DNA of 21,665 nt from the IMG/VR virus record IMGVR_UViG_2617270975_000008; one strand, given 5' to 3'. Shown here piece by piece: positions 1 through 16,157 of this stretch. The notes beneath the pieces are model-generated. The model saw only the letters and a program-made list of their open reading frames with translations, was not told the origin of the DNA and ran no database searches. The stretch's first letter is position 1. Each line of letters opens with the position of its first letter. The stretch comes from a virus (Duplodnaviria; Heunggongvirae; Uroviricota; Caudoviricetes). The position numbers were made by a program, and so were the translations under genes.

Positions 1-26
1 TTCACAGAACCGTTTTTAAATTACCT

Positions 27-776
27 TCACTGATCTCCTTCGGTCAACGGAGATTGTATTTTCCGCATTGATTCTCCTTTAAGTTCGATCTTGATACTGC
101 CATGAACCAGTCGATCTAGGATGGCATCCGCATGTGTGGAGTCTCCGATCATTTTGTACCAGTTTTCCACCGGCAACTGGCTCACTACGATGATTGAGCC
201 TCGTTGGTACATCAGATCCACTATTTCCAGCAGGTCGCTACGCTGTTCTGATGAGAGAGGTTCCAGCCCCCAGTCATCCAGAAGCAGCAGATCGCTATTA
301 TTCAGCCTGGTCAAAAGTTTGCTGTATCTTCCATCAGCATGCCCCTGATAGCACTGTTCCATCAGCGCTTTAAGGCGATAATAGTAGACCTTGTATCCCT
401 GTCGGCAGGCATTATGACCAAGTGCACATGCCAGGAACGTTTTACCGCTGCCGGTGGCCCCGGTCAGTAAAATATTTTGTTTCAGGGTTAACCAGTTTCC
501 CTGACTGAGTGAACGGATGAGGGCCCTGTCCAGCCCTCTATTGTTACGATAATCCAGCTTTGATAACTCAGCATTAAGTCTGAACCGTGCATGTTTGATC
601 AGACGCTCTGCCTTCCTGTTTTCACGGCAGGTTAGTTCTTCTGCTGTCAGTAATGACAGGCGTTCTTCGAAGCCCAGCTCCTGGTATGTGCCCGGCTGAG
701 CAAGTTGCTTTTTAAGCGCATCACGGAAGCCGGTGAGTTTAAGTGCGGTCAGTTGTTCGTAAAGATGATTCATCAT
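27..776 (-). CDS. istB: IS21-family helper ATPase IstB
   Basis: 249 aa; Walker A GATGSGKTFLA and Walker B LLLLDDWG; overall IstB/DnaC-like AAA+ layout; immediately downstream of istA. Confidence 0.9.
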   Translation of the reverse strand: MMNHLYEQLTALKLTGFRDALKKQLAQPGTYQELGFEERLSLLTAEELTCRENRKAERLIKHARFRLNAELSKLDYRNNRGLDRALIRSLSQGNWLTLKQNILLTGATGSGKTFLACALGHNACRQGYKVYYYRLKALMEQCYQGHADGRYSKLLTRLNNSDLLLLDDWGLEPLSSEQRSDLLEIVDLMYQRGSIIVVSQLPVENWYKMIGDSTHADAILDRLVHGSIKIELKGESMRKIQSPLTEGDQ

Positions 777-787
777 TGGATCCCGTA

Positions 788-2329
788 TCAGTGGTAATAC
801 TCACTGCCGCGTACGTTTTCGTGTTCCATCGTGGATAACAGATCTGGTTTTGGATCCTGAACAGGTTGTTTATCCAGACCTTTTTCCAGGATCGATTTAA
901 TACCTGACAGACGCCATACCTTTGTTTTCAGAGCTCTTGCACATGCTGCATTAAGTCTGGCTTTACTGTATTTTTTATGAAGGTTCAGGAGTCCAAGGCA
1001 GAAGCGATAGCTTTGTTCCGGATGTGGACGAGAGTTCAGTATATGAAGCACATAACTATGAGTTTCACTGCCTATGTGCCCCGCCCATTCCAGAAGACGC
1101 TCTGGCGTCCAGGTGGCATGCTGTCGATGAGCTTCAGGCATGTGCTCGTTGCGGGTACTGTAGCCATAAGTACGCTTGCGCGGGTGCACAGCAACCTCCT
1201 GCCCCTGATTGAAGAGTCTTACCAGTTCTCCGGAGATCCATGCTTCCAGTTGCTGGCCTAACAGCGAACATGGAACCGAGTAGTAATGTTTGTCGATTTC
1301 CACGTGGTAATCGGCATGAACTCTGACTTTCTTCACCAGGGTGTAACTGTAACTGGCTTCAGGAAGAGGCTTCAGTGCGGGTTTATCAAGCTGGATGAAG
1401 AGTTCTGCACGTGAATAACCCAACTTCTGCATTATTTTGTTATTCAGTCTTTCCAGCAACTCCCGAATGCGCTGATTAAGCGATGCAAGGCTGTAGAAGA
1501 TCTCATGCCTGATTCGGGCCATGATCCAGCGTTCAACAACCTGAACGCCAACTTCAGCTTTGGCTTTATCTTTCGGTTTACGTGGCCGCGCAGGCAAAAC
1601 TGCGACATTATAATGCTCAAGCATCTGCTGGTAGGTAGGGTTAACGTCAGGATCATACTTACATGCCCTGGATGTGGCGCTTTTCAGATTGTCCGGAACA
1701 ACAAGTTCAGGAACGCCACCCAACCACTGGAAGCAGCGAACATGACTCATCACCCAGTCTTCAAGCTGCTGAGACCAGGTGGCCTCTGCCCATGTGTAAC
1801 TTGATGCCCCGAGAACAGCTACGATGACCTGAGCAGTTCTTATTTCTCCGGTCTCAGGGTCGGTAACGCCAACGGTAGGTCCACAGTAATCAACGAAAAG
1901 TTTTTCGCCAGCTTTATGTACCTGACGCATTGATGGTGAAGTGGTTTTGAGCCATTCACGGTACATCCGGCAGTAATGGTTATAGCTGTAAAAACCGCCT
2001 GGATTACGCTCACAGTATTCTTCCCAGAGTAGCTGCAGCGTCACGCATTTATTACGCAGTTCCCGGTGTACTGTAGCCCAGTCAGGCAGAGAGTGCTTCT
2101 TCATCTTAACCTGGGTCTGAAGGAACGCATGTTTTAGTTTTGTATCATCCCATCCTGTAGGTAAGGGCCACTGCTTTATGCCAAGTTGAGCCGCCCGATT
2201 AGCATATCTGGATACAACGGAAGGGGAGATTGCAAGACTACGACCAATTTGTCGATGGCTGAGTCCAACACCGTATTTAAGCCTAAGAATTTCTTTAAGT
2301 TTTCTCATAGAAATTGGAACTGTTGGCAT
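788..2329 (-). CDS. istA: IS21-family transposase IstA
   Basis: 513 aa; N-terminal HTH (LSHRQIGRSLAISPSVVSRY) followed by an rve-type integrase core; 11-nt gap to istB. Confidence 0.85.
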   Translation of the reverse strand: MPTVPISMRKLKEILRLKYGVGLSHRQIGRSLAISPSVVSRYANRAAQLGIKQWPLPTGWDDTKLKHAFLQTQVKMKKHSLPDWATVHRELRNKCVTLQLLWEEYCERNPGGFYSYNHYCRMYREWLKTTSPSMRQVHKAGEKLFVDYCGPTVGVTDPETGEIRTAQVIVAVLGASSYTWAEATWSQQLEDWVMSHVRCFQWLGGVPELVVPDNLKSATSRACKYDPDVNPTYQQMLEHYNVAVLPARPRKPKDKAKAEVGVQVVERWIMARIRHEIFYSLASLNQRIRELLERLNNKIMQKLGYSRAELFIQLDKPALKPLPEASYSYTLVKKVRVHADYHVEIDKHYYSVPCSLLGQQLEAWISGELVRLFNQGQEVAVHPRKRTYGYSTRNEHMPEAHRQHATWTPERLLEWAGHIGSETHSYVLHILNSRPHPEQSYRFCLGLLNLHKKYSKARLNAACARALKTKVWRLSGIKSILEKGLDKQPVQDPKPDLLSTMEHENVRGSEYYH

Positions 2330-2339
2330 AGGTATCCTT

Positions 2340-2507
2340 TACCGGAATGGCAAAAGATACAGATCAACACACCTGTGAAGTTCCAATAACATTGATGGAG
2401 ATCACTGAATAACAAAATGAGTCAAAAGTGATCTCCATCGATGTTATTCAGCGATCTGTTCAAATGTTATTACCCGATCTCGATGGAAGTTATTGAGTGA
2501 TCTCCTT
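2340..2507. repeat. IS21-type subterminal repeat cluster (multiple direct and inverted copies of GATCTCC / GTTATT motifs)
   Basis: Seen directly: ggagatcactgaataac (2398-2414), gtgatctcc (2431-2439), gatgttattcagcgatct, aatgttattacccgatct, gaagttattgagtgatctcc (2486-2503). Confidence 0.6.
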
Positions 2508-2960
2508 TCATGAAAATACGCAACCGTCCTTAATCCACCAGCGAATCGCCTCACACGCTCCCCTGCGGTCACCAGCATTCAGCCGCTTATAAAACGTCGA
2601 CGGGAAACACTTACCGGGGCCAATGTTATAGGGACAGAATGACGCTATACCCGCTTTCTGTGGTTCGGTCAGTGGAACTTTAATATTGCGCTCCACCCAT
2701 GCCAGCGCCTTATCCCGTTCAATGGCATTAACCTGGTCGCATTTTTCCTTCGACAGTTTCATGCCCGGAATAACAGGTTTACCATCCACCATTGTGGCAC
2801 CGCGGCAGATGGTCCAGATACCCGCACCATCACGGTATGCCGTTGTGTGGTTACCTTCTTTTTCATCCAGAAACTGGTCGAGAATATCAGGCGCAGGCGC
2901 ACCGATGGCAATCAACGCCAGAACGGCAGCCGACAGGCCATATTTGATTTTGGTGTTCAT
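2508..2960 (-). CDS. R: Phage endolysin R (lysozyme, SAR-type signal-anchor N-terminus); C-terminus replaced by IS-derived codons (CVFS-stop)
   Basis: 150 aa; N-terminus MNTKIKYGLSAAVLALIAIGA matches the hydrophobic SAR segment of Stx-phage/P21-type lysozymes as recalled; conserved lysozyme core; reading frame runs into the IS repeat region after WWIKDG. Confidence 0.85.
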   Translation of the reverse strand: MNTKIKYGLSAAVLALIAIGAPAPDILDQFLDEKEGNHTTAYRDGAGIWTICRGATMVDGKPVIPGMKLSKEKCDQVNAIERDKALAWVERNIKVPLTEPQKAGIASFCPYNIGPGKCFPSTFYKRLNAGDRRGACEAIRWWIKDGCVFS

Positions 2961-3088
2961 GGATATTTATCAGGATTTATCGGTTCCGAATCCCTGGATA
3001 TGTTAAATCTTCAGCCCGCCAGCGGTAGGACACTGGCGTTTTTCCTGATGGCTGAAATATATCTGACAATTTCAGTAGAGGATTAACC

Positions 3089-3403
3089 ATGCATAACGAT
3101 CAACATAATTATGATTTATGCCTGCAAGCCATAAATGAGCGGGTAAAATCAGAGTGCCTCTTACTCCTCCCACAAGAACACGATGCAGTAAAATCCATTC
3201 AGGCTGAGCCGTATGGACATCTCACACCTGTGACTCTCGGCATTATCGCCAGAGCATTAACACAGCCCATGCTTATGCGTATTAAGACCAATATAAATAA
3301 CTGGTTGAATGAAGAATTAAGCTACCTTGATTGTGAGTGGGACAATCATTACGCAAAAACACAAAAAGAACGCATCTTCAGTCGATTATCCAGCAACAGA
3401 TAA
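3089..3403 (+). CDS. Hypothetical protein (104 aa), antisense to the late operon, inside the S-R insertion
   Basis: Strong SD (GAGGA, 7 nt before ATG); lower GC than backbone; no family recognised. Confidence 0.55.
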   Translation: MHNDQHNYDLCLQAINERVKSECLLLLPQEHDAVKSIQAEPYGHLTPVTLGIIARALTQPMLMRIKTNINNWLNEELSYLDCEWDNHYAKTQKERIFSRLSSNR

Positions 3404-3412
3404 CGAGCCACC

Positions 3413-4219
3413 TTATATACGCCCTTTCAGATAAGTCATCCCCGGCTGCATCCAGTCAACAGGTGCTTTCTTAAAGGGCGTATTATCAAAATCACGCAGA
3501 AGAGCCTCCAGCACAACTGCATCATTGTCAGCACCACTGGCCATCATTTCAATCTCAGCTGCTACCTGCAGATATCCCATGCAACGACCAATGCGCTTCA
3601 TCAGCCCCTGCTTTTTATTGTTCTTCAGGTAATCAATGGCAAATTCAATGAGCGCCTCACTATGCTGGTGCGATGGCGGTGTTAATTTCCCATTTTCTGA
3701 GATGGTTATTTTCCCGCCATCTCCGTATACAACAAAGGATGGCCGGTTACACTCCCATTCCTGATCTTTATCAGGTGCAGACGCAATAAAATAACGTTTA
3801 TTTCCTTCCTCTCCGGCACTTTTAACCGTAATGGAGTACTCAGACTGCAGACAAGACGCCTCTTTTTCTGACCGCAGTGTTGACGGCGGCATCTTCAGAG
3901 AACCAGTAATTCTTCCCGGTAGCTTTCCTTTGTAGGTTATCAACACATCCTGCGCCTCTAAAATTATGGGGCGCTTTTCCGGCAACGGTTCGTTCCCTTC
4001 ACATAACCCGGCAGCAACATCCATGAAAAACTGCTTCGCCTGCTTTTTCGCCTCAGCTTCGTAAAACTCCAGCGTGGCACCTTCAGTACGGTCAAGACTA
4101 ATCGCCACATTTGGCAACAACAGTGACGGATACCCACCAATTTCCAGTACCACAGTAACAGTAATCTTATCCGGGTAATTATTTATCCCTTTAACAACCA
4201 GTTCGTATTTTTTCTTCAT
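3413..4219 (-). CDS. Hypothetical protein (268 aa) inserted between holin and endolysin; expressed in the late operon
   Basis: ATG 5 nt after the S stop with GGGGAGAG SD; no TM segment or signal peptide evident; no family recognised. Confidence 0.65.
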   Translation of the reverse strand: MKKKYELVVKGINNYPDKITVTVVLEIGGYPSLLLPNVAISLDRTEGATLEFYEAEAKKQAKQFFMDVAAGLCEGNEPLPEKRPIILEAQDVLITYKGKLPGRITGSLKMPPSTLRSEKEASCLQSEYSITVKSAGEEGNKRYFIASAPDKDQEWECNRPSFVVYGDGGKITISENGKLTPPSHQHSEALIEFAIDYLKNNKKQGLMKRIGRCMGYLQVAAEIEMMASGADNDAVVLEALLRDFDNTPFKKAPVDWMQPGMTYLKGRI

Positions 4220-4223
4220 CGCT

Positions 4224-4439
4224 TTACTCTCCCCGCGCCGCCTTACGCCGGTCCTCTCTGATTTTGAAATACAGGTTAGTCAGATATGTCAGCAGCCCAA
4301 ACAGCAGACTCCCCAGCACGCCTATTGCCGCCCACTGAGACGGGGAAACCCTGTCCAGCAACTGCAGGAACCAGTAGCCCGTTCCCACCGCTGACGTGGT
4401 GTATGACACACCTGTTGTGATTTTTTCCATCTGGTACAT
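4224..4439 (-). CDS. S: Phage holin S (class with dual-start MYQMEK motif)
   Basis: [71 protein letters not shown] matches Stx-phage holin as recalled; two hydrophobic segments and charged C-tail. The 97-aa track ORF is an upstream extension. Confidence 0.85.
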
Positions 4440-4473: not shown

Positions 4474-4503
4474 TAAAAAAAGCCACCAGTTAAGTACTGA
4501 TGG
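4474..4503 (-). terminator. Intrinsic terminator between nanS-p and S (hairpin gccaucag/cugguggc followed by U-run on minus-strand RNA)
   Basis: Plus strand aaaaaaagccaccagttaagtactgatggc; 8-bp stem with one G-U pair, A-run on plus strand gives U-tract on minus transcript. Confidence 0.5.
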
Positions 4504-4589
4504 CTCTGATAACTCATGCAGGCATCTCAGACGACCCACTGACACTACCGGTGAGTTTAACGATACCTTCCATTTGACTGGCTCACTTT

Positions 4590-6458
4590 TTATGATGATG
4601 CCGGTGCATTTATCTCCAGCACCAGACTTTCTATCTCAACGCCATACGCTGCATTTTTGGTAATATCCGTCAGCGTCAGCGCATTCAGCCCCAGTGTCAG
4701 ACTGTCTTTTATGACCTGGAATGCCGGGCCAGCCACTCCATTCAGTTTCGGAGTAACCGTGGCACTGCCGGCGGTGAACACCAGCTCCAGCGTCTGCCAG
4801 TCGTTACTGTAATTCCCGAACTCGCCCAACTTTGTGTTTCCGGCTTTCTTGTGATGCATCAGATTCAGTTTGCCGTCTGTGGTCTGGGTGAAGAACGACA
4901 TCAGGAACGGGTTACCAGTCCCGGTCATCGCCACGACGTCAGGTAACGCTACATCGGTATACAGATAAATTCCCAGACCGAACTGGTTGTTGGTCAGTGC
5001 GCCTGACAGTCGAAACTTACAGCTCAGTCTGCCACCCCGTGTCAGCAGGGAGACTGCGTCATCCACCGGATGCATCAGGGACCAGGTTTTATTGCTCTGC
5101 TTGGTAACCTTAAACACACCATCTTCCAGCGCAACACTGCCGCCGGTGATGGTCCAGCCCTGCGCAGCAGCCTCTCCGGCTGTCGGCAGCAGGGAGATTG
5201 TGCGAACGGACGTATCTGCAGACGGACCCGATGGCGTGTCGCCGCCGGGCGAGGGTTTGATTTCCGGTGCCTTACCACTGATGAAGGCTGAGGTGCGCCC
5301 GGCTACGTTCAGAATAGCAGTTGCCATACGATCGGGAATAATGCCACGACGCGCCCATGAGCTGAAATGCGTCGGGCGATTTGATGATACCCAGTTTTTG
5401 TTCGTTCGGGATGCCGAACCGTAATAACCAGACCCGGCAATATCAGGATCTTCTGACGGGTTGTTTGTCGGTGTATTAACTCCGCTACCATCGGTCATAA
5501 AGGGAACAAAATAAATCTGCTGGGATTCTTTACCTTTATATGCACCATATACCACTTCATATTGCGTACCGTGTTCTTGTTTCCACGCGTATGTCGTGTC
5601 GCCACAAATCCAGGGGACTGATGCCGGACTTCCACCGTGACACTGCGCTGCCAGCCCGGCAAGGTCAGCACGGAACTGCTGTACCATTGCAAGAAATGCT
5701 GCTGGCTGCTGGGCGTAACTGGCATTCGTCATATCGAATTCCCCCTGCATCCAGCATATCGCCAGCAAAACGTTTTTCGGGTTTTTCTGCAATGCTGCCT
5801 TCGTGCGGAAAAGCAGATCCTGATATAACGGCTTACCCACTCCCCAGCGAGCCGAATCCTGACTGGCCCCCGTGGACTCGCTGAATGTCCCCTCCGTGCC
5901 CTGGGTGAATGCCGAACCACCACGACAGCATGGTACCAGCAGGATCCCCGCATTATTAGGGATATACGGAAGCAGTTTTTTGGCAATATGTAAGCCCTGG
6001 CCGACACAGCCGTACTGCCCTTTGCTCAGGTCAGCCCGGGGATGGTTAATCGTACTCATATCCTGAACATCATGCAGACAATGGTCAGCAGGAATGATGT
6101 CGTTAAATACGCATACTTCACCACCGGGAGTCACTGTGTTACGACGGGCCAGTTGCTTAATGCGCGGATGGGGCGCATCGTATGAATCCGGAAGCGGAAG
6201 CCCTTCACCGTAAGCCATGGCATTGGACTGCCCGGCCAGTACGATGACGTAGTACCACTCCGGCTCAGTTGCACCACTGACGACCACATCACCTTCTGCT
6301 GCAATCGCCTGCATCAGGGTATAAGGGGTTATGGCCACCGGACTACCAAACGGCTGCCAGCCCTCTTTCAGTTTATGTGTCAGCTTTTCCGCAAGATCTG
6401 ACGGCGACGCCGCCCTGACAACATCATAGTGTTTAAATGCCATGGTTCTTTCCACCAT
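4590..6458 (-). CDS. nanS-p: NanS-p-like sialate O-acetylesterase (N-terminal DUF1737-like region, SASA/SGNH esterase domain, C-terminal carbohydrate-binding-like region)
   Basis: 622 aa; GQSN catalytic-serine motif (VIVLAGQSNAMAYG); position immediately upstream of holin S as in Stx phages. Confidence 0.7.
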   Translation of the reverse strand: MVERTMAFKHYDVVRAASPSDLAEKLTHKLKEGWQPFGSPVAITPYTLMQAIAAEGDVVVSGATEPEWYYVIVLAGQSNAMAYGEGLPLPDSYDAPHPRIKQLARRNTVTPGGEVCVFNDIIPADHCLHDVQDMSTINHPRADLSKGQYGCVGQGLHIAKKLLPYIPNNAGILLVPCCRGGSAFTQGTEGTFSESTGASQDSARWGVGKPLYQDLLFRTKAALQKNPKNVLLAICWMQGEFDMTNASYAQQPAAFLAMVQQFRADLAGLAAQCHGGSPASVPWICGDTTYAWKQEHGTQYEVVYGAYKGKESQQIYFVPFMTDGSGVNTPTNNPSEDPDIAGSGYYGSASRTNKNWVSSNRPTHFSSWARRGIIPDRMATAILNVAGRTSAFISGKAPEIKPSPGGDTPSGPSADTSVRTISLLPTAGEAAAQGWTITGGSVALEDGVFKVTKQSNKTWSLMHPVDDAVSLLTRGGRLSCKFRLSGALTNNQFGLGIYLYTDVALPDVVAMTGTGNPFLMSFFTQTTDGKLNLMHHKKAGNTKLGEFGNYSNDWQTLELVFTAGSATVTPKLNGVAGPAFQVIKDSLTLGLNALTLTDITKNAAYGVEIESLVLEINAPASS

Positions 6459-6636
6459 CTGAAAAATGATTCTTTAAAATACCTGACATGTAATACAGAA
6501 AAAACACAAAACCATACCTTAATTAAAAACCTCATCATCAAGCAGATATGCATGGATAAACTACAAGACGAGATATAAACCACCCTGCATTTAAATAAAC
6601 AATAAACAACATCAGAAAAATAATTCTGCTCTATGG

Positions 6637-6703: not shown

Positions 6704-7039
6704 ATGAAGTGGATTGTGATTGATACAGTTATCCAGCCATCATGCGGAATATCTTTTTCAGTCATATGGAGTAAAATAAAATTAATAATCTGGTATCAAT
6801 CGGATGCTTTCTTACCTCCTGAAAGTATATTTACACTGACTCACACAGGCATCATGCTCAATAACAAAGTGCTGCCTGTAACCATTTACAACGTAGTACC
6901 ATTCAATAAAACATTCTGGAATTTAATCAAAAACAGCCAGGAATGCCCTACAAATACAGATAACGTATTGAATGAATGCTTTAATAACCGTTGCACTCTG
7001 CAAATATGTCCTTATGGGCTAAAACAACAAAGTCCATAA
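6704..7039 (+). CDS. Hypothetical Cys-containing protein (111 aa) in AT-rich cargo at the stx-equivalent locus
   Basis: AAGGAA SD 5-6 nt before ATG; long ORF in AT-rich DNA where stops are frequent; antisense to late operon. Confidence 0.5.
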
Positions 7040-7950: not shown

Positions 7951-8027
7951 TGGCGCGCTGTACTGGATTCGAACCAGTGACCGATTGCTTAGAAGGCAAT
8001 TGCTCTGTCCGGCTGAGCTAACAACGC
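7951..8027 (-). tRNA. argO: tRNA-Arg (anticodon UCU)
   Basis: Manual cloverleaf: acceptor GCGTTGT/ACAGCGC, anticodon stem ATTGC/GCAAT, loop CTTCTAA, T-loop TTCGAAT, CCA end. Confidence 0.85.
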
Positions 8028-8040
8028 ATGATGCAGATAA

Positions 8041-8117
8041 TGGACCGCCATCGGGGACTTGAACCCCGCGCAGCCAGCTTCGAAGGCTGGCGCTCTATCC
8101 CGATGAGCTAATGGCGG
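8041..8117 (-). tRNA. argN: tRNA-Arg (anticodon UCG)
   Basis: Manual cloverleaf: acceptor CCGCCAT/ATGGCGG, anticodon stem CCAGC/GCTGG, loop CTTCGAA, T-stem CGGGG/CCCCG, CCA end. Confidence 0.85.
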
Positions 8118-8124
8118 TATGTGA

Positions 8125-8200
8125 TGGTGGCCCTTGCTGGATTTGAACCAGCGACCTGGCGATTATGAGTCGCTCGCTCTCACCACTGAGCTAAAGGGCC
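8125..8200 (-). tRNA. ileZ: tRNA with CAU anticodon (Ile2 lysidine-type as in Stx-phage ileZ, or elongator Met)
   Basis: Manual cloverleaf: acceptor GGCCCTT/AAGGGCC, loop CTCATAA, T-stem GCTGG/CCAGC, CCA end; gene order Ile-Arg-Arg matches recalled Stx-phage ileZ-argN-argO. Confidence 0.8.
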
Positions 8201-8249: not shown

Positions 8250-9299
8250 TCAAACGATTAAATCCTGAACTTCCCTGACTGTCTGCTCAAAACGTCCGGT
8301 CTCCAGTTCAACGCCAATCGCACGACGCCCGAGCGCCAGTGCCGCTTTTACCGTTGAACCTGAGCCCATAAAAAAATCTGCAACCTGGTCTCCCGGACGA
8401 CTGCTTGCGCTGATTATCTGCTGCAGCATTTCTGCCGGTTTTTCGCACGGATGTTTCCCGGGATAGAACTGCACCGGTTTATGTGTCCACACATCCGTGT
8501 ACGGCACCTGCGCCGTCACACCAAAATACCGCCGCAGATGCTTATATTCACTCTGCAGCTCCACATACTGCCGGTTCAGTGACGTATACGTATCCACCAG
8601 CTGGTGGTGGGGCTTTTCCAGTTCACCGCGCTGATGTTTCTCTTCTGCCACCCGGGCAAACAGCGACTGTAATTTCAGATAATCGCTTTCGTTCGGTAGC
8701 TGCCACTGACTGGCACTGAACCAGTGCGACACCATGTTTTTCTTTCCTGTGGCATCTGCAATCTGTTTTGCCGTTATCCCCAGGGCCGCGCGCGCATCAC
8801 GAAAGTAAGAAATCAGCGGGGCCATCACATGCTGTTTCAGTGCACTGCCCTTCGCCGCATACCCGGCATCTTTCGGACGATACGGCCCCTGATAATGTTC
8901 CGCGAACAGAATGCGCTCTGTGGCGGGGAAATACGCCCGCAGGCTTTCCTTGTTGCATCCGTTCCAGCGTCCGGACGGCTTCGCCCAGATAATATGGTTC
9001 AGCACACTGAAGCGTTCACGCATCATGATTTCGATATCAGATGCCAGGCGATGACCACAGAACAGGTAAAGACTTCCGACAGGTTTCAGCACCCGCCAGA
9101 ACTGCGCCAGACACTGGTCCAGCCACTTCAGGTAATCATCGTCGCCCTTCCACTGGTTATCCCAGCCCTCAGGCTTCACTTTAAAGTACGGCGGGTCCGT
9201 GACTATCAGGTCAACAGAATTTTCGGGTAACGACCGGATAAATTCCAGGCAGTCGGCGTTGATTAACTCACAACTGGATATTTTTACAGTATTAAGCAT
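8250..9299 (-). CDS. Orphan DNA methyltransferase (beta-class N6-adenine or N4-cytosine; DPPY then FxGxG order)
   Basis: 349 aa; IVTDPPYF near N-terminus, FFMGSGSTVKAALALGRR near C-terminus; no adjacent restriction endonuclease ORF. Confidence 0.8.
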   Translation of the reverse strand: MLNTVKISSCELINADCLEFIRSLPENSVDLIVTDPPYFKVKPEGWDNQWKGDDDYLKWLDQCLAQFWRVLKPVGSLYLFCGHRLASDIEIMMRERFSVLNHIIWAKPSGRWNGCNKESLRAYFPATERILFAEHYQGPYRPKDAGYAAKGSALKQHVMAPLISYFRDARAALGITAKQIADATGKKNMVSHWFSASQWQLPNESDYLKLQSLFARVAEEKHQRGELEKPHHQLVDTYTSLNRQYVELQSEYKHLRRYFGVTAQVPYTDVWTHKPVQFYPGKHPCEKPAEMLQQIISASSRPGDQVADFFMGSGSTVKAALALGRRAIGVELETGRFEQTVREVQDLIV

Positions 9300-9765: not shown

Positions 9766-9792
9766 TCATAAAAAACCCGCCAGGCGGCGGGG
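9766..9792 (-). terminator. Candidate tR' terminator downstream of pR' (cccgcc aggc ggcggg hairpin plus UUUUUU)
   Basis: Plus strand cataaaaaacccgccaggcggcgggg; strong GC stem and 6-U tract on minus-strand RNA, about 50 nt downstream of the candidate late promoter. Confidence 0.65.
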
Positions 9793-9840
9793 TGTAAAAA
9801 ATCTTCTAACGTCAGGCATAAAACGCCCATCGTTAGAGCA

Positions 9841-9868
9841 AATTTACCACAGATTCGGGAAAAATCAA
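9841..9868 (-). promoter_or_regulatory. Candidate late promoter pR' (TTGATT, 16-nt spacer, TAAATT) just after the Q stop
   Basis: Motifs on minus strand; position between Q-like gene and terminator as in lambdoid phages. Confidence 0.45.
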
Positions 9869-9873
9869 CAACA

Positions 9874-10695
9874 CTATCGCGTTACCCTCTTTAACTGCCG
9901 CTCCGCCCATGCCTCTTCAATGTCAAACCGAACCACCAACGTATCGTAAAAGCGTTTCACTGATTTTTTCCACGTATCAAGCGTGATAGCACTCGTCACT
10001 TTGCATATGGCATTAAATGCCTCCGTTGATGGCAGCCTTTCACAGCCACGACCACCACAACGCTGGCAATCTCTGATAACAGGCATACCACGTTTTACCG
10101 ACTCTTCACGATGAATGGCGACACCACGCCCACGGCAATCCTTACAGGCGGTGGAAACCTCACCCTTTCCGCCACACTCCGGACAGGCAACTTTTACCAC
10201 CTCCCTGACTTTTTTCCATTCTTCCCAGTAAGACGGATACACGCCTTTTGTGCACTTTGCCCACACTGGTGGCTTACCATCCGGATACTGGATCTTGTTT
10301 GTAAAAACCTCGCTTTCAATAAATTTTTTTCCGTGACAGCAGGGGCACTGTTTTTTGCTCGCCGCGCTACGGGCATAATCTTCAAACGCATACGAAGCCA
10401 TAATGCGCATCACTACCGGTTTTATTTCTGCCGGAAGTTTTCTCAACGCCGCCACACGATCGCACCGACTGAGTGCATAATCTGCCAGTAATTCTGTTGC
10501 CCGCGCCCTGTCATTCATACTGATGCCCATTTTCCCCAGGAACGCAGAAAACCCCATCTCAGCCCGATTCTGTGTCATGCCCTGCGCGGCCATCACATCA
10601 GTGATACTCAGCGCATCTTTTGACGTTGAGGCCGATGCATCGGTCAGGCCAGGGGATTTTGGGGAGTAGTATTTCGGTAAATCTTCCAGTTTCAT
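9874..10695 (-). CDS. Candidate late antiterminator Q (QuuQ-like by position) carrying four DnaJ-type CxxCxGxG zinc-finger repeats
   Basis: 273 aa; CPCCHGKK, CPECGGKG, CKDCRGRG, CQRCGGRG repeats; sits between rusA and the pR'/tR' signals; ATGA overlap with rusA. Family assignment is inferred, not recognised by sequence. Confidence 0.5.
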   Translation of the reverse strand: MKLEDLPKYYSPKSPGLTDASASTSKDALSITDVMAAQGMTQNRAEMGFSAFLGKMGISMNDRARATELLADYALSRCDRVAALRKLPAEIKPVVMRIMASYAFEDYARSAASKKQCPCCHGKKFIESEVFTNKIQYPDGKPPVWAKCTKGVYPSYWEEWKKVREVVKVACPECGGKGEVSTACKDCRGRGVAIHREESVKRGMPVIRDCQRCGGRGCERLPSTEAFNAICKVTSAITLDTWKKSVKRFYDTLVVRFDIEEAWAERQLKRVTR

Positions 10696-11072
10696 TTTTT
10701 GACCTGCTCTTCATGCATTATGGGGTAAATCTTCACCCCCATACGTCCACCAGATACTGGCTGACCACGAACGATATTGATTTCATCAAACTGCTCATCG
10801 TCCATTAACACTCCCGCATGCGTCAGCGCATCCAGCGGTGCTTTCAGGATATTGTCCAGGTCGCGACGACGCTTATCCGGTGGCTCTGCAATCACCTTTA
10901 TCGCCAGCCTTCCGGACAGGCTTAATTTCAGCCGCTGCTGGCGAACAATAAGCGCCACAGCCCGGCGATAACGCTTTCCCTCCTCCGAGATAAAATATGT
11001 GCTGCCACGGCGTCGCCAGTAAGTGTTCACCGTTGGCGGGTAAGGCAAAACAAATTCTATGCGTTCAGTCAT
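10692..11072 (-). CDS. rusA: Holliday-junction resolvase RusA
   Basis: 126 aa; conserved RRRDLDN motif and overall RusA pattern (YPPTVNTYWRRRG...DEQ). Confidence 0.85.
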   Translation of the reverse strand: MTERIEFVLPYPPTVNTYWRRRGSTYFISEEGKRYRRAVALIVRQQRLKLSLSGRLAIKVIAEPPDKRRRDLDNILKAPLDALTHAGVLMDDEQFDEINIVRGQPVSGGRMGVKIYPIMHEEQVKK

Positions 11073-12128
11073 TTATGCTTTCCACTTCAGAACACCCGAA
11101 TTTCTCGCGTGCATTAAAAAACGAATCAGCAACAACAGCTGGCTGCCGTGTTTTTCTTCAAAATCTTTTACCCCGGCGTGTAGTTCGCTATGGCATTTAC
11201 GGCACAGCGGAATAACAAACAAATCATCAGCCTTTGTTCCCATCCCTCCCAGTCCATGACCAATGATGTGATGCGGATCATCTGCCTGATTGCCACACGT
11301 CATGCATTTCTGCGTTTTTACCCAACGCGTGTATACAGGCATCTCTTCCCGTTGTGATTTCTGGCGCTGGAGATACTGAGCCGGTGACTCCGGATCAACG
11401 GCAATGCTGACCACCGTCTTTTCCTGTGGCGGGGTTTGCTGGTGGGCGTGAGGCAGCGGCGCAAGATTTTTTGTGCGCTGCTTCAGTATGCTGGTGGCGG
11501 TCTGCTCTCCCGGTACGATGTCGCTTTCACGGTACATTGAGCGGATTTTTTCCGCACGCAACCCCAGCGAACGACGTAATACCGCTTCCGGTAGCGCGTC
11601 CGCCACCTGATTGCGGACCGCCCACCAGGATAATTCAGCCAGCGATAATTCCCGTTCCTGCGAGCCATTCATTGCATGGCGTATGACGTCAATCATCCAT
11701 GCAGACAGGTTTTGGTGAGCAAGTTGCCCGAGTGATTCGGAGGTCTGGTCGCGCAGCTGGTTGTCGCAGTGCCAGCACAACACCATTGCGCCGGTACCAT
11801 AACGGTGAATGACGGTTTCACTGTGGTGATAATCGCCGTGTGGCCACTGGCAGGATTTAACATGGCGCAGTAACCAGTCAGACAATGCGCCAGCGCCACC
11901 AGCAGCACGAATCACTCGTTCGTCGCTGAAAAATGGCAGTAATGATTTATCCTCCGCCAGCGGCTGGCGAACGGCAGGAACGACCCCGGACGGCAGATTA
12001 CGCATGCTTTTCGGTTCCGGCTCCACCAGTACCCGGGTATTGTGGAATACCGGCATGGATTCACGGCCCGGCTTAACGATCACCAGCCCGAGTTCCGGTA
12101 CCAGAACAGGTCGAAGTAATACCCGCAC
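11073..12128 (-). CDS. ydfU: DUF968-type prophage protein (YdfU-like) with C-terminal Cys/His cluster
   Basis: 351 aa; C-terminal CMTCGNQADDPHHIIGHGLGG...CRKCHSELH; K-12 Qin-like neighbourhood (Q-like gene, rem, hokD, relE, relB as recalled). Confidence 0.5.
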   Translation of the reverse strand: MRVLLRPVLVPELGLVIVKPGRESMPVFHNTRVLVEPEPKSMRNLPSGVVPAVRQPLAEDKSLLPFFSDERVIRAAGGAGALSDWLLRHVKSCQWPHGDYHHSETVIHRYGTGAMVLCWHCDNQLRDQTSESLGQLAHQNLSAWMIDVIRHAMNGSQERELSLAELSWWAVRNQVADALPEAVLRRSLGLRAEKIRSMYRESDIVPGEQTATSILKQRTKNLAPLPHAHQQTPPQEKTVVSIAVDPESPAQYLQRQKSQREEMPVYTRWVKTQKCMTCGNQADDPHHIIGHGLGGMGTKADDLFVIPLCRKCHSELHAGVKDFEEKHGSQLLLLIRFLMHARNSGVLKWKA

Positions 12129-12129
12129 G

Positions 12130-12408
12130 TTACCTCCAGATGCGTTGCTGGAATGTGCGGGACGGACGCGGTGGGCGTTCGGAGTAAGGAAGCCTGACGG
12201 AGATTATCCAGTGACGATAATCGAGGCTGAGGGCTTTCTTAATCTCGTATCCGTGTCTGCGGTAGCACTGAATTAGCCACTCGGCCTGTTCTTCAGTGCA
12301 TGGGGGATGCTGGAACCAGTCAGATTTGAAAGTGCGGGAACGCCGCCCGTGCCTGCTGGCAAAGACGGCAGAATCATCAGAATTGTGTAATTTGGTATCG
12401 TGCGCCAT
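12130..12408 (-). CDS. Small prophage protein (Rem-like by position), start taken at internal ATG
   Basis: The 135-aa track ORF would contain the hok terminator; the ATG at 12408 gives 92 aa ending 1 nt before the ydfU-like start. Confidence 0.4.
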   Translation of the reverse strand: MAHDTKLHNSDDSAVFASRHGRRSRTFKSDWFQHPPCTEEQAEWLIQCYRRHGYEIKKALSLDYRHWIISVRLPYSERPPRPSRTFQQRIWR

Positions 12409-12480
12409 CGGTTGTCTCTGCTGGCGCAGCAGGTGCCAGTTGTTCAGGCTGGTGTGCGAATTGTAAACCAGAATGCTAGG

Positions 12481-12507
12481 AAAAAACAAAACCCGCCGAA
12501 GCGGGTT
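12481..12507 (-). terminator. Intrinsic terminator downstream of hokD (aacccgc cgaa gcgggtt plus U-run)
   Basis: Plus strand aaaaaacaaaacccgccgaagcgggtt. Confidence 0.65.
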
Positions 12508-12574
12508 AAGTGCGGGTGCGTTGAGGATGCCTGACACATCAGAGGTGGCGAGGGATTCTCCCCCGCCTGGTCTC

Positions 12575-12730
12575 TTACTCCTCAGGTTCGTAAGCTGTGA
12601 AGACAGCGACCTCCGTCTGGCCGGTTCGGATTCGTACCTCGCAGAGGTCTTTCCTCGTTACCAGTGCCGTCACAATGACGGTTAAACAGATGACGATCAG
12701 GGCGATTAGCATCGCCTTTTGCTGCTTCAT
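12575..12730 (-). CDS. hokD: Hok/Gef-family membrane toxin HokD (RelF), 51 aa
   Basis: Hand translation gives MKQQKAMLIALIVICLTVIVTALVTRKDLCEVRIRTGQTEVAVFTAYEPEE; below the 60-aa track cut-off; AGGAGAAG SD. Confidence 0.9.
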   Translation of the reverse strand: MKQQKAMLIALIVICLTVIVTALVTRKDLCEVRIRTGQTEVAVFTAYEPEE

Positions 12731-12801
12731 AGCCTGCTTCTCCTGTCAACGCAAAGCAGAAGTGTCACCTTCGGTGCGAAACAGAGATGTCATGCTTTGG
12801 T

Positions 12802-13089
12802 TCAGAGAATGCGTTTGACCGCCTCGCTATATACTTCCGAGCGTTCTCTTTTCCCAACAGAAATCACGAAAACGACAACTTTCTCGTCTATAACCTGGTA
12901 TACAAGGCGATAGCCTGAAGACCGGAGCTTAATCTTGTAACAATCAGGCATACCACGGAGCTTGTTTGCTTCAATCCGGGGTGACTCAAGTACTTCAACC
13001 AGCTTCTTTTTCAACTGTTCACGTACCGTCGAGCCCAGCTTTCGCCATTCCTTTAGTGCCCGCTCGTCAAAATCCAGAAAATACGCCAT
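12802..13089 (-). CDS. relE: RelE mRNA interferase toxin
   Basis: 95 aa, MAYFLDFDERALKEWRKLG...; matches K-12 RelE as recalled. Confidence 0.95.
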   Translation of the reverse strand: MAYFLDFDERALKEWRKLGSTVREQLKKKLVEVLESPRIEANKLRGMPDCYKIKLRSSGYRLVYQVIDEKVVVFVISVGKRERSEVYSEAVKRIL

Positions 13090-13328
13090 CAGAGTTCATC
13101 CAGCGTCACACGTACTGGCTTAGGATTACGAAGCCGTTCTTTCACTATCTCCACAAGTTCAGCATCTTCATCACTCAGGAGTGTCTGTTTGAACGGCAAG
13201 CGTTCATTGTCAGCGATATACTCGAGCATGAGACGAAGCGCTTCAGAAGGAGTTACACCCATTTTTTCAAGCGCGGCGTAAGAACGCGCTTTAAGTTCAT
13301 CGTCAATACGCAGGTTAATGCTACCCAT
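13089..13328 (-). CDS. relB: RelB antitoxin
   Basis: 79 aa, MGSINLRIDDELKARSYAALEKMGVTPSEALRLM...; overlaps relE start. Confidence 0.95.
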   Translation of the reverse strand: MGSINLRIDDELKARSYAALEKMGVTPSEALRLMLEYIADNERLPFKQTLLSDEDAELVEIVKERLRNPKPVRVTLDEL

Positions 13329-13340
13329 GTCTTACACCTC

Positions 13341-13364
13341 TTGTAATTACAAATGTCATTACAA
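13341..13364. promoter_or_regulatory. relBE operator-like palindromic TTGTAAT repeats upstream of relB
   Basis: ttgtaattacaa followed by atgtcattacaa, immediately upstream of the relB SD. Confidence 0.6.
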
Positions 13365-13658
13365 GTATCGCACTACAACATGCTTAGGGCAAGTCACGAA
13401 GGAAGTCAGAAAGTAGTCGTAAGAACGGTGATCACTGTCCGCTTTGTGCCAGGAGCAGCCATTGCTAAGTCCATCCTGTATTGTGCAGGTCAGCTCATTT
13501 TTAAAGAGTCCGGCCATCATCTTACTGGTACAGACACCATATACTTTGTGACGGTCAGGCTACATATGCACAACTCAACTTATTCATCTATTTTTTGCTT
13601 TAGCATGTCAGTGTTGCTTTCTCGTCGGCGGGTGAGCGGTGACCTGACCTGTCGATAA
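13353..13658 (+). CDS. YdfV-like small ORF (101 aa), possibly non-coding
   Basis: Length and position between relB and flxA match recalled K-12 ydfV; overlaps the relBE regulatory region; no clear RBS. Confidence 0.25.
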   Translation: MSLQVSHYNMLRASHEGSQKVVVRTVITVRFVPGAAIAKSILYCAGQLIFKESGHHLTGTDTIYFVTVRLHMHNSTYSSIFCFSMSVLLSRRRVSGDLTCR

Positions 13659-13810
13659 AGGAACGTAGCACGTTTTATGCAACACCCGCATGCGGCAGAA
13701 AATTATTGCCGAACGTTTACCCCTGTCAACAAGCTTTACTTTCTGAGGCGCGCCAGCCCGCTAGGAAAACAATCTGAACATCAAACAATTAATGACACAA
13801 GAAATACGAT

Positions 13811-13837
13811 TAAAGATTTTTTTGTGCATGCCGATAG
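13811..13837 (+). promoter_or_regulatory. Sigma-28 (FliA) promoter of flxA: TAAAGATT, 11 nt, GCCGATAG
   Basis: Close match to the TAAAGTTT-N11-GCCGATAA consensus. Confidence 0.75.
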
Positions 13838-13860
13838 TGCTTTTTTAAAAGGAGAAATCT

Positions 13861-14193
13861 ATGTCTGTCACAATTCAGGGAAATACCTCAACCGTTATTT
13901 CAAACAACTCCGCCCCGGAAGGAACATCAGAAATAGCCAAAATCACAAGACAAATTCAGGTGCTGACTGAAAAGCTTGGGAAAATCTCATCGGAAGAGGG
14001 GATGACGACACAGCAGAAAAAAGAAATGGCTGCATTGGTACAGAAGCAAATTGAAAGCCTCAGGGCTCAACTGGAGCAGTTGTTAAGGCAGCAGGCAGAG
14101 AAAAAGAATGAAGACGCGACAGTTCAGCCTGATAAAAAAGAAGAGAAAAAAGACGATACAAATACCGCTGGCACCATTGATATTTACGTCTAA
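13861..14193 (+). CDS. flxA: FlxA (FliA-regulated protein), coiled-coil-rich
   Basis: 110 aa, MSVTIQGNTSTVISNNSAPEG...; GGAGAAATCT SD. Confidence 0.85.
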   Translation: MSVTIQGNTSTVISNNSAPEGTSEIAKITRQIQVLTEKLGKISSEEGMTTQQKKEMAALVQKQIESLRAQLEQLLRQQAEKKNEDATVQPDKKEEKKDDTNTAGTIDIYV

Positions 14194-14207
14194 GTGACAG
14201 CCGTATT

Positions 14208-14230
14208 GTGGCCCTCATCGGGCCACTTTT
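14208..14230 (+). terminator. Intrinsic terminator after flxA (gtggccc tcatc gggccac tttt)
   Basis: Perfect 7-bp GC-rich stem plus T-run. Confidence 0.75.
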
Positions 14231-14280
14231 CGCCATCAGCCTTTTCTTTAAAGACATATTATCTTTGTATCATTTCTGAT

Positions 14281-16157
14281 AGTTAACATTACAAGATATA
14301 AGTAATGGACGCACTCCCAATTAGTCTATTTAAATCGCCACGAGTTTAACTGACAACCCATGATCAATTATGAATTGCAACTATTTCTGTAGTCACTTTT
14401 GTGGGGACAGTCCACAAAACTGCCAACTTCCGCTTCTTGCTCTTAGCGGACATTAGCATAGGCTATTTACCATAACGCCTCATTACGCGCACCGCCCAGA
14501 CTGACTCAGCGCGTTTCTGGCATATCCCCAGTAAAACAAGTAACAAACCACCCGAAAATGAACACCAGAAACGCGACTTAAGAATCTACCCTATGAATGG
14601 ATATGCACTCAACCGAATCGATCTTGGTTTCAATCTTTTTTATCGGGATCAGGCTTCTTTTTAGGTAACTTCGGGGGCTTAACTTGCTGATGACTTTGCG
14701 TTCGGCGCGTAAGCCAGGGATGGTCAGCTTTAGGTTTAACATAGTATTTTGAGCGTAAATCAATACGGGCATTATCCACTCGTTCATGGACACTCTTTTC
14801 ATCATCCAGTGGTATAGGCTCCGGGCCATCAACATACTTTTCCCAGCCCAGCGCTTTCCCGTCATACAGAACGTTAATTTCACCGTCAAAGTTCTCGCAT
14901 ACAGTAACAACCGAATGCCTAAGTCGATATCCCCGGCTCTCACTGCGTACCTGAAACGCACTGCTTTTGTACTGGAAAGTGAGATTTTTAGACAGAACGC
15001 GCTTCGCCTGTAGGCTGAAGATATAACCCAGTTCCTCTTCAGAATGGTGCACATCAAGATGAGCATTATCAGTAGTACGAGGCGACGTAGCGAACCGGTT
15101 GTTATAGGCTTCAATAAAGGTCGGCAACCATGCATTTGCTGTTTCAATATCACTGATATTCTGAAGCCGCATTTCTTTGACCAGCCTGTCCTGTAGTGTC
15201 TGATTGGCGCGCTCTACCCGCCCTTTTGCCTGCGGGCTGTTGGCATGGATTGGCTCGATGCCCAGTGTCTTTATCGCACGAGTGAACTGGGTCAGCTCAC
15301 CTTCCCGCTCTGGGTTATTTACCCTGAATATACTGTGTCTATCAGAGTAGAGAGCGAGCGGTACGCCATGATCATTAAGGTAACCCCGGAGGGTTTCCAT
15401 GTAAGCCCGGGTTGTTTCAGCAGGCACAAAACGCAACGCCATCAACGCACTGGTGGCATCATCAATGAAAACGATCAGTGTACATCTGGGGCCTCGATTT
15501 TCAAACCAGTCATGAGGTGAGCCATCAATCTGGATCAGTTCACCGTAAGATGGTCGTCGCATGCGGCGTTGATATATACGGGCAATTTTACGGCGGCGTT
15601 CACGCCATAACCCCTCTTCTATCATCCACTTTCTGAGAGTTTCAACGGATAAAGATAAACCGTGTATCTCGCGCAATTTTTCGCACGCAAACGTAGGTCC
15701 AAAATCAGCGTAACGGCCTTTGAGGAGTGAAATTACTGTTGCTCTGAATTCAGTAGAAAAGGAATTATTAGGACGCTTTCCACGTCGGTGGGAAACCAGA
15801 CCAGAAGGCCCTTCATTTCTATACCGTTGCACCAGACGTTTAACCTGCCGAATAGAAATGCCAATGCGTGCCGCAGCTTGTTCCTGAGTAATATGTCGAT
15901 TAATTGACTCCTGAATAATCTGAAGTCGGTGGAGTTCCTTATGACTCATCGTAACAGTCTCTTTGATCATGAAAAATCCCCCAGAGAATTGTCTGGGGAC
16001 ATTTTAGAATGGTTCAAAGGGGACATTACAGCTTGGTGTTAACACATAGCCTGCTTCTCCTTGCCTTTCGGCACGTAAGAGGCTAACCTACGTGTGTAGA
16101 GCATAGATATGGCCTCAGATTAATGTTAAGCGTCTTGCCGGACGCGTAATGTTAACT
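14281..16157 (-). mobile_element. Candidate insertion sequence carrying a single DDE (rve-type) transposase; 12-bp inverted repeats AGTTAACATTAC; family uncertain (IS481-like architecture)
   Basis: Exact 12-bp inverted match at 14281-14292 and 16146-16157 flanking the transposase; extra TAATGTTAA and TGGGGACA subterminal copies; no target-site duplication found. Confidence 0.45.
14630..15970 (-). CDS. DDE transposase (N-terminal HTH, rve integrase core; IS481-like)
   Basis: 446 aa; HTH ITQEQAAARIGISIRQVKRL; DDE triad candidates in IQIDGSPHDWF, LYSDRHSIF, KGRVERANQTLQ; basic C-tail. Confidence 0.8.
   Translation of the reverse strand: MIKETVTMSHKELHRLQIIQESINRHITQEQAAARIGISIRQVKRLVQRYRNEGPSGLVSHRRGKRPNNSFSTEFRATVISLLKGRYADFGPTFACEKLREIHGLSLSVETLRKWMIEEGLWRERRRKIARIYQRRMRRPSYGELIQIDGSPHDWFENRGPRCTLIVFIDDATSALMALRFVPAETTRAYMETLRGYLNDHGVPLALYSDRHSIFRVNNPEREGELTQFTRAIKTLGIEPIHANSPQAKGRVERANQTLQDRLVKEMRLQNISDIETANAWLPTFIEAYNNRFATSPRTTDNAHLDVHHSEEELGYIFSLQAKRVLSKNLTFQYKSSAFQVRSESRGYRLRHSVVTVCENFDGEINVLYDGKALGWEKYVDGPEPIPLDDEKSVHERVDNARIDLRSKYYVKPKADHPWLTRRTQSHQQVKPPKLPKKKPDPDKKD

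Follow-up and report, generated by a model that had tools for sequence, protein, structure and literature searches.

The lysozyme gene R of the prophage analysed here is split by a copy of ISEc12, an insertion sequence of the IS21 family. The window, i.e. the whole stretch of 21,665 nucleotides of IMG/VR record IMGVR_UViG_2617270975_000008, covers this prophage only in part, from the replication region to R, and ends within the element. By exact protein matches it corresponds to contig JNQZ01000061.1 of assembly GCA_000704425.1 over its full length. It is proposed that a copy of ISEc12 transposed into codon 147 of R in a lambdoid prophage with a Qin-like/Stx-phage-like late region, duplicating the 5-bp target ACGGT and leaving a truncated product (R') that is most likely inactive, with lysis blocked; taken as a whole, this explanation is considered highly probable. 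The truncation of R and the identity and borders of the element were established, as were the target-site duplication (TSD) and the displaced 3' end of R in a sister strain. The features at the left end of the window are as follows.

2508..2960, minus strand: truncated endolysin ORF R', 150 aa, consisting of 146 native residues followed by CVFS and the stop codon TGA
2523..2960, minus strand: native part of R, codons 1–146, with 100% nucleotide identity to intact alleles
2508..2522, minus strand: first 15 nt of the left end of ISEc12, read as Cys-Val-Phe-Ser-stop
2523..2527, minus strand: left copy of the 5-bp target ACGGT, the right copy being found in sister contig L007
1..2522, minus strand: ISEc12 (IS21 family) in the orientation of R, positions 1–2522 of 2581, the last 59 bp lying beyond the contig end
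2330..2522, minus strand: left end of the IS, with the terminal TGCGTATT and several internal GGAGATCAC/AATAAC-type repeats
788..2329, minus strand: istA transposase gene, 513 aa, intact
27..773, minus strand: istB helper ATPase gene, 248 aa, intact

The truncated lysozyme gene

An earlier sequence-only reading had taken this frame for a Stx-phage lysozyme cut by an IS, and on both points it was right. The C-terminus of the ORF, read directly in the window, is native up to AIRWWIKDG and continues as CVFS-TGA, and 141 of the 146 retained residues (97%) are identical to R of the Stx2-converting phage 86 (Stx2-86; AB255436), while no stx genes were found in the window. The truncation stands as proposed, but the predicted loss of 20–30 residues is slightly too small: intact R has 177 aa, of which R' keeps 146 and lacks 31 (17.5% of the protein; GRDCRIRSNNCYGQVSRRDQESALACWGIDR, then stop), encoded by 96 more nucleotides in the intact gene.

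Alignment to intact homologues of R, which have 177 aa and extend beyond the break, locates the end of the native sequence precisely. Across 578 nt, up to window position 2523, the DNA of the window matches intact 177-aa lysozyme genes at every base (100% identity), the allele compared being that of E. coli O104:H4 2011C-3493 (177 aa, annotated as 'lysozyme'), and homology is lost at the same position in all 368 phage records matching the S-to-R region. In the 90% cluster of R the dominant full-length members are 177 aa long, and most of the shorter entries are tagged as partial. A variant of 169 aa, which lacks the last 8 residues and still covers the whole Pfam domain, occurs on 20 contigs of Shigella boydii.

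R' matches the Pfam family Phage_lysozyme (PF00959; E=6e-23, 81.9 bits, cut-off 22.3) over profile positions 2–110 of 125, whereas the intact allele spans positions 2–125; with the last 15 of the 125 positions missing, R' is a truncated member of GH24/PF00959. Deposited names of the 150-aa protein are 'phage lysozyme family protein [Escherichia coli 2-427-07_S4_C1]' and 'membrane-associated lysozyme; Qin prophage'. Despite these lysozyme names, R' represents the 5' portion of a pseudogene split by the IS. The displaced 3' fragment of R is absent from the rest of the window, where searching gave only chance matches of at most 16 nt.

The ISEc12 element

The IS21-family element of the sequence-only reading was identified as ISEc12, since window positions 1–2522 share 99.8–99.9% nucleotide identity with copies on about 1,770 E. 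coli replicons that PGAP annotates as 'IS21-like element ISEc12 family', the comparison being with these annotated copies. IstA scores 310 bits against the NCBIfam model transpos_IS21 (cut-off 160) and IstB 270 bits against IS21_help_AAA (cut-off 200), the Pfam domains of the two genes being rve, Mu-transpos_C_2 and IstB_IS21. The reference ISEc12 copy L002 encodes the same two proteins (WP_001298859.1 and WP_001016257.1; 100% amino-acid identity), and the element therefore looks functional.

The border of the IS lies at window position 2522, where the window and four independent copies, once aligned, turn invariant. On the minus strand the element starts from this position as 5'-TGCGTATTTTCATG, and the border reads 5'-TGCGTATTTTCATGAAAGGAG. 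A border near position 2534, taken from a first megablast pass, was replaced by 2522 on the basis of the multiple alignment and the TSDs. All seven full copies measured are 2581 bp long and have the ends TGCGTATT...AATACGCA. The termini are TG...CA, with the first 8 nt repeated in inverted orientation, and internal repeats are present at both ends (in both cases the right end was read from sister or reference copies); several internal repeats are typical of IS21-family ends. Five full copies at separate sites (L002–L005 and L015) are flanked by 5-bp TSDs (ACCGT, ACTGG, ACTAT, CCGGT and CCAGG). ISEc12 thus combines the characters of the IS21 family, namely istA with istB, TG...CA ends and a TSD of 5 bp, the last seen in sister and reference copies.

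In the flanks at window positions 2523–2540 and in L002–L005, G[GA]TTAA lies 3–5 bp upstream of an AC.GT-like duplication. A target-site motif of ISEc12 based on the similarity of flanks was rejected, as the query that ranked these copies highest contained the flank itself and hence selected them for flank similarity.

Short-read assemblies usually break inside repeats, and the window contig ends inside the IS, as it would in a genome with several copies of this element. No terminator-like site was found on the minus strand inside the IS, so that antiterminated late transcription probably still passes through the element to Rz and genes further downstream.

The far side of the insertion

Sister contig L007 (CYEG01000053.1), which differs from the window by 3 mismatches in 12.7 kb (99.98% identity), crosses the IS. 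Its sequence at the right end of the element is ...AATACGCA-ACGGT-GGCAGGGACTGCCGT..., in which a second ACGGT precedes the 96 nt of R that the window lacks; past the 3' end of R, three small ORFs occupy about 600 bp, and an Rz-type 'lysis protein' gene begins after them. The displaced 3' end of R, the start of Rz and a target-site duplication, all of which the sequence-only reading had expected past the other end of the IS, are therefore present in this contig. That reading had also placed the IS where Rz/Rz1 would follow; the element rather lies inside the 3' end of R, and Rz/Rz1, which in relatives start approximately 0.5–1 kb past the R stop, are displaced by 2.6 kb and not replaced. When the IS and one ACGGT were removed from L007 in silico, the restored R had 177 aa and matched that of O104:H4 exactly. 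In NZ_CP048934, a genome without the interruption, the left flank extends as far as position 4966536 and the right flank begins at 4966532; this overlap of 5 bp is what a 5-bp TSD predicts.

The right junction of the window's own copy lies off the contig. Among the carriers of R', two contigs cross the IS, L007 and L006, and they differ in the far side. L006 (CYFP01000052.1) contains the same left junction joined to CCAGG and a patatin/RdcB/dynamin locus, and at this locus the complete genome B19374 carries an ISEc12 copy of its own with CCAGG on both sides. The join in L006 lies at 9118–9160, and the ISEc12 copy compared was L015 (838–3458). L006 may result from misassembly across the 2.6-kb repeat, or two IS copies may really have recombined. 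The same doubt extends to the strain of the window, whose far side is taken to resemble L007 from the 99.98% identity of this sister assembly.

Enzyme type and predicted effect of the truncation

The holin gene S and the genes between S and R are listed below.

4224..4439, minus strand: holin S, 71 aa, P21 holin S/class II, with an MYQM dual-start look, intact (PF04971, E=2e-32)
3413..4219, minus strand: 268-aa gene of the DUF1327/YdfR family between S and R, corresponding to orf5 of Stx2-86
3089..3403, plus strand: 104-aa ORF between S and R on the opposite strand, corresponding to orf6 of Stx2-86 and also present in O104:H4

R aligns significantly but distantly with R21, the SAR endolysin of phage P21 (PDB 3HDE/3HDF; E approximately 3e-16), and also aligns with RrrD (4ZPU). 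The triad E-x8-D-x5-T of R' (E35/D44/T50) corresponds residue for residue to E35, D44 and T50 of R21. Residues 7–24 of R (YGLSAAVLALIAIGAPAP) are 50% G/A/S, with a best 15-aa Kyte-Doolittle window of 2.17, both being measures of composition only. The adjacent 71-aa S matches the family 'Bacteriophage P21 holin S', as expected of a pinholin partner, and is annotated as a class II holin at the homologous locus. On these similarities R is predicted to be a P21-type SAR lysozyme paired with a pinholin of the P21-S family. R and S resemble R21 and S21 in the GH24/T4-lysozyme-type domain, the triad and the P21-S-family holin partner, and R is P21-like also in its weakly hydrophobic Gly/Ala-rich N-terminal segment, for which SAR behaviour is predicted, whereas R', unlike R21, is without the segment aligned to the last approximately 23 residues of R21. 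In PMC10462455, Stx-phage holins of the P21 family are counted among the pinholins, the partners of SAR endolysins.

The 268-aa gene consists of an N-terminal DUF1327 part and a long extension, the DUF1327 gene being a pseudogene in O104:H4, and no family match was found for the 104-aa ORF. The two genes are conserved as a pair in the viable phage Stx2-86.

SAR lysozymes of this type are exported by Sec and stay tethered and inactive until the pinholin triggers and depolarises the membrane, upon which R is released and refolds; the spanin Rz/Rz1 then disrupts the outer membrane. In the proposed mechanism, R would have as partners the pinholin of the P21-S family encoded next to it and the spanin Rz/Rz1 encoded further downstream, and the product of the interrupted gene would be R', with 146 native residues followed by Cys-Val-Phe-Ser, in which the putative SAR segment and E35/D44/T50 are kept. 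R' is most likely misfolded or inactive, because the last 31 residues, including 15 of the 125 positions of the lysozyme domain, are gone; this is judged probable with good, though not high, confidence. The solved homologues that are shown residue by residue, or matched to their end, all continue past the break in R'. For the intact 177-aa R, a single-sequence AlphaFold2 model had a mean pLDDT of 38.7, at which the role of the lost 31 residues is not readable. Literature searches on the C-terminal truncation of SAR endolysins and on IS-disrupted endolysins returned nothing directly relevant.

The lysis cassette is thus likely defective and the prophage lysis-impaired, as the sequence-only reading had suggested, even with the triad and the putative SAR domain retained in R'. 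On induction, the cell would still be killed through depolarisation of its membrane by the pinholin; with the murein uncut, however, the progeny would be trapped, unless another resident prophage provides an endolysin. Such a supply is possible because E. coli genomes with R-like sequence typically contain it at about two places each. That this prophage is predicted to kill its host on induction without release of phage would matter only for work on prophage mobility in that lineage.

Alternative explanations

R' might still be an active lysozyme, in which case the lysis cassette would work, perhaps with altered timing. The triad and the putative SAR segment are intact in R' and its Pfam match is still strong, and a variant without the last 8 residues occurs in Shigella boydii; this variant, however, spans the whole Pfam domain and is uninformative on a cut at residue 146, while 15 of the 125 positions of the catalytic-domain profile are missing from R' and the solved relatives all reach past the break. 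In the T4-lysozyme fold, moreover, the C-terminal helices belong to the folded core, and an active R' is therefore regarded as unlikely. The IS may also have recombined with another ISEc12 copy; the prophage would then be split or partly deleted, and its R 3' end would have lost its neighbourhood with Rz and with the genes for morphogenesis. The join in L006 between the left R::ISEc12 junction and the CCAGG right junction of a separate ISEc12, an insertion which has its own duplication in a complete genome, is what such an event would leave, and the break of the window contig inside the IS is as several copies would cause. L006 may yet be a misassembly via the 2.6-kb repeat, L007 has the cognate right junction with its TSD, and the window itself carries no evidence that bears on the event, which leaves this recombination rather improbable.

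That the junction is an assembly artefact, with a chimeric contig formed via the repeat and R really intact, would agree with a contig end that falls in a repeated element, but the 41-nt junction is identical in 8 loci from several accession series, its right counterpart with the TSD is found in L007, and the insertion is precise at the TG...CA terminus of the IS; an artefact is extremely unlikely. Practically negligible is a natural end of R homologues near residues 146–150 with the IS merely downstream, as alleles of 100% nucleotide identity run 96 nt further, the full-length cluster members have the lengths given above with the shorter ones mostly labelled partial, and the missing 96 nt sit across the IS in L007. 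The preferred explanation therefore remains an ISEc12 insertion that disrupts R. It is quite improbable that this insertion represents more than passive decay, for which three readings may be put forward. The insertion might be an adaptive lock-in in one E. coli lineage, a non-lysing prophage retaining its nanS-p esterase, methylase and relBE while induction releases no phage; R', still exported by its putative SAR segment, might have residual or altered activity in the periplasm; or IS-IS recombination might have used the R::ISEc12 copy to rearrange the chromosome, as L006 suggests.

Distribution and age of the insertion

The exact R' protein is encoded on 10 draft contigs in public assemblies, and the 41-nt left junction (CGCTGGTGGATTAAGGACGGTTGCGTATTTTCATGAAAGGA) is identical in all 8 loci retrieved, which come from several sequencing projects and accession series. 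Among 5,426 complete E. coli genomes, none contains this junction or the right one (GGTAATACGCAACGGTGGCAGGGACTGCC). By comparison, the R region is present at an identity of at least 99% in 955 records, the top-ranked ones having the intact 177-aa gene, and the restored R ORF shows no further damage. Since the junction is rare, the intact allele common and the restored ORF undecayed, the R::ISEc12 allele is derived, of recent origin and restricted to a few related strains, for which its junction is a clean and rare marker. Judging from the accession series, the carrier lineage is possibly ETEC. The sequence-only reading dated the insertion after the acquisition of the prophage, and insertion in the prophage state, after lysogeny, is indeed most likely, as lytic propagation is not expected of a phage that lacks endolysin; this dating is reasonable, if short of proof.

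A further carrier, L010, is homologous to the window only from 9780 to 2424 (99.6%), with an identical R::ISEc12 junction. In its positions 1–3200, compared with window positions 9780–12960, its early region differs, with DnaB present and a Q of PF06530 type in place of the PF03589-type Q. This mosaic suggests later recombination among lambdoid prophages, after the insertion.

Comparison with known systems

The lysis region of Stx2-86 is ordered S, orf5, orf6, R, ant and Rz/Rz1. The window shares with it the order S, 268-aa DUF1327 gene, reverse 104-aa ORF and R, as well as a nanS-p-type esterase gene upstream, and is 97.8% identical to it over 1998 nt. Stx2-86, unlike the window, has an intact 177-aa R and carries stx2, and after R it has ant, Rz/Rz1, bor and terminase genes, whereas the three small ORFs follow R in the lineage of the window (L007). 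The E. coli K-12 cryptic prophage Qin has the gene order essQ-ydfR-rrrQ and relBE-hokD-ydfV-flxA. Homologues of relB/relE, ydfV and flxA and a YdfR-family gene between S and R are Qin-like features of the window, while its late region differs from Qin in having a nanS-p-type esterase gene, three tRNAs and a methylase gene, as in Stx phages.

ISEc12 is also inserted in tssM of E. coli ST131 clade C, where it is flanked by a 5-bp target duplication and divides the gene, presumably inactivating it; this insertion has been inherited as a lineage marker and is fixed in thousands of genomes (PMC10711316). The same IS, a 5-bp duplication and a split gene are found in R::ISEc12, but its target is a prophage lysis gene and not a type VI secretion gene, and it is known from 10 contigs and no complete genome. 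In the Q-S region of Stx2a phages, elements of the IS3 and IS66 families are located in or near nanS-p (PMC10462455). These cases, like R::ISEc12, concern interrupted late-region genes of lambdoid prophages with P21-family pinholins, whereas R::ISEc12 involves an IS21-family element and lies in R. The event is thus ordinary, IS insertion in prophage late genes being commonplace and of a kind already known, and, judged by identities of 97.8–100%, both components are catalogued elements. R::ISEc12 opens no new biological question, and its main value is for annotation, as the deposited 150-aa lysozyme is part of an IS-split gene.

Other features of the prophage

Upstream of S, the window contains the following late-region features.

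10695..9874, minus strand: Q antiterminator, PF03589-type
9299..8250, minus strand: DNA methylase
8200..7951, minus strand: tRNA-Met, tRNA-Arg(TCG) and tRNA-Arg(TCT)
6458..4590, minus strand: SASA/NanS-p-type esterase

Between positions 6460 and 8250 the tRNAs lie downstream of Q and the methylase gene, as in Stx phages, and the position of stx is occupied by small ORFs of 118 aa, 43 aa (DUF3927) and 111 aa. The precomputed label PF11183 (PmrD) for the 111-aa ORF (6704–7039, plus strand) was rejected, as hmmscan found no family. A strong terminator-like hairpin (12 pairs and a T run) is located inside the late operon at 4479–4507 on the minus strand, where it separates the esterase gene from the start of S.

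A segment of 3,300 bp (12745–16044) lies between 17-bp direct repeats (CATAGCCTGCTTCTCCT; 12728–12744 and 16045–16061). It contains genes for a relE/ParE-type toxin, relB, a ydfV-like protein and flxA, as well as an intact 446-aa IS1202-like transposase (ISEsa1-family/ISNCY). L007 and L011 lack the segment and contain the 17-mer only once. The segment may have been inserted with duplication of a long target, or lost from these contigs by deletion between the repeats.
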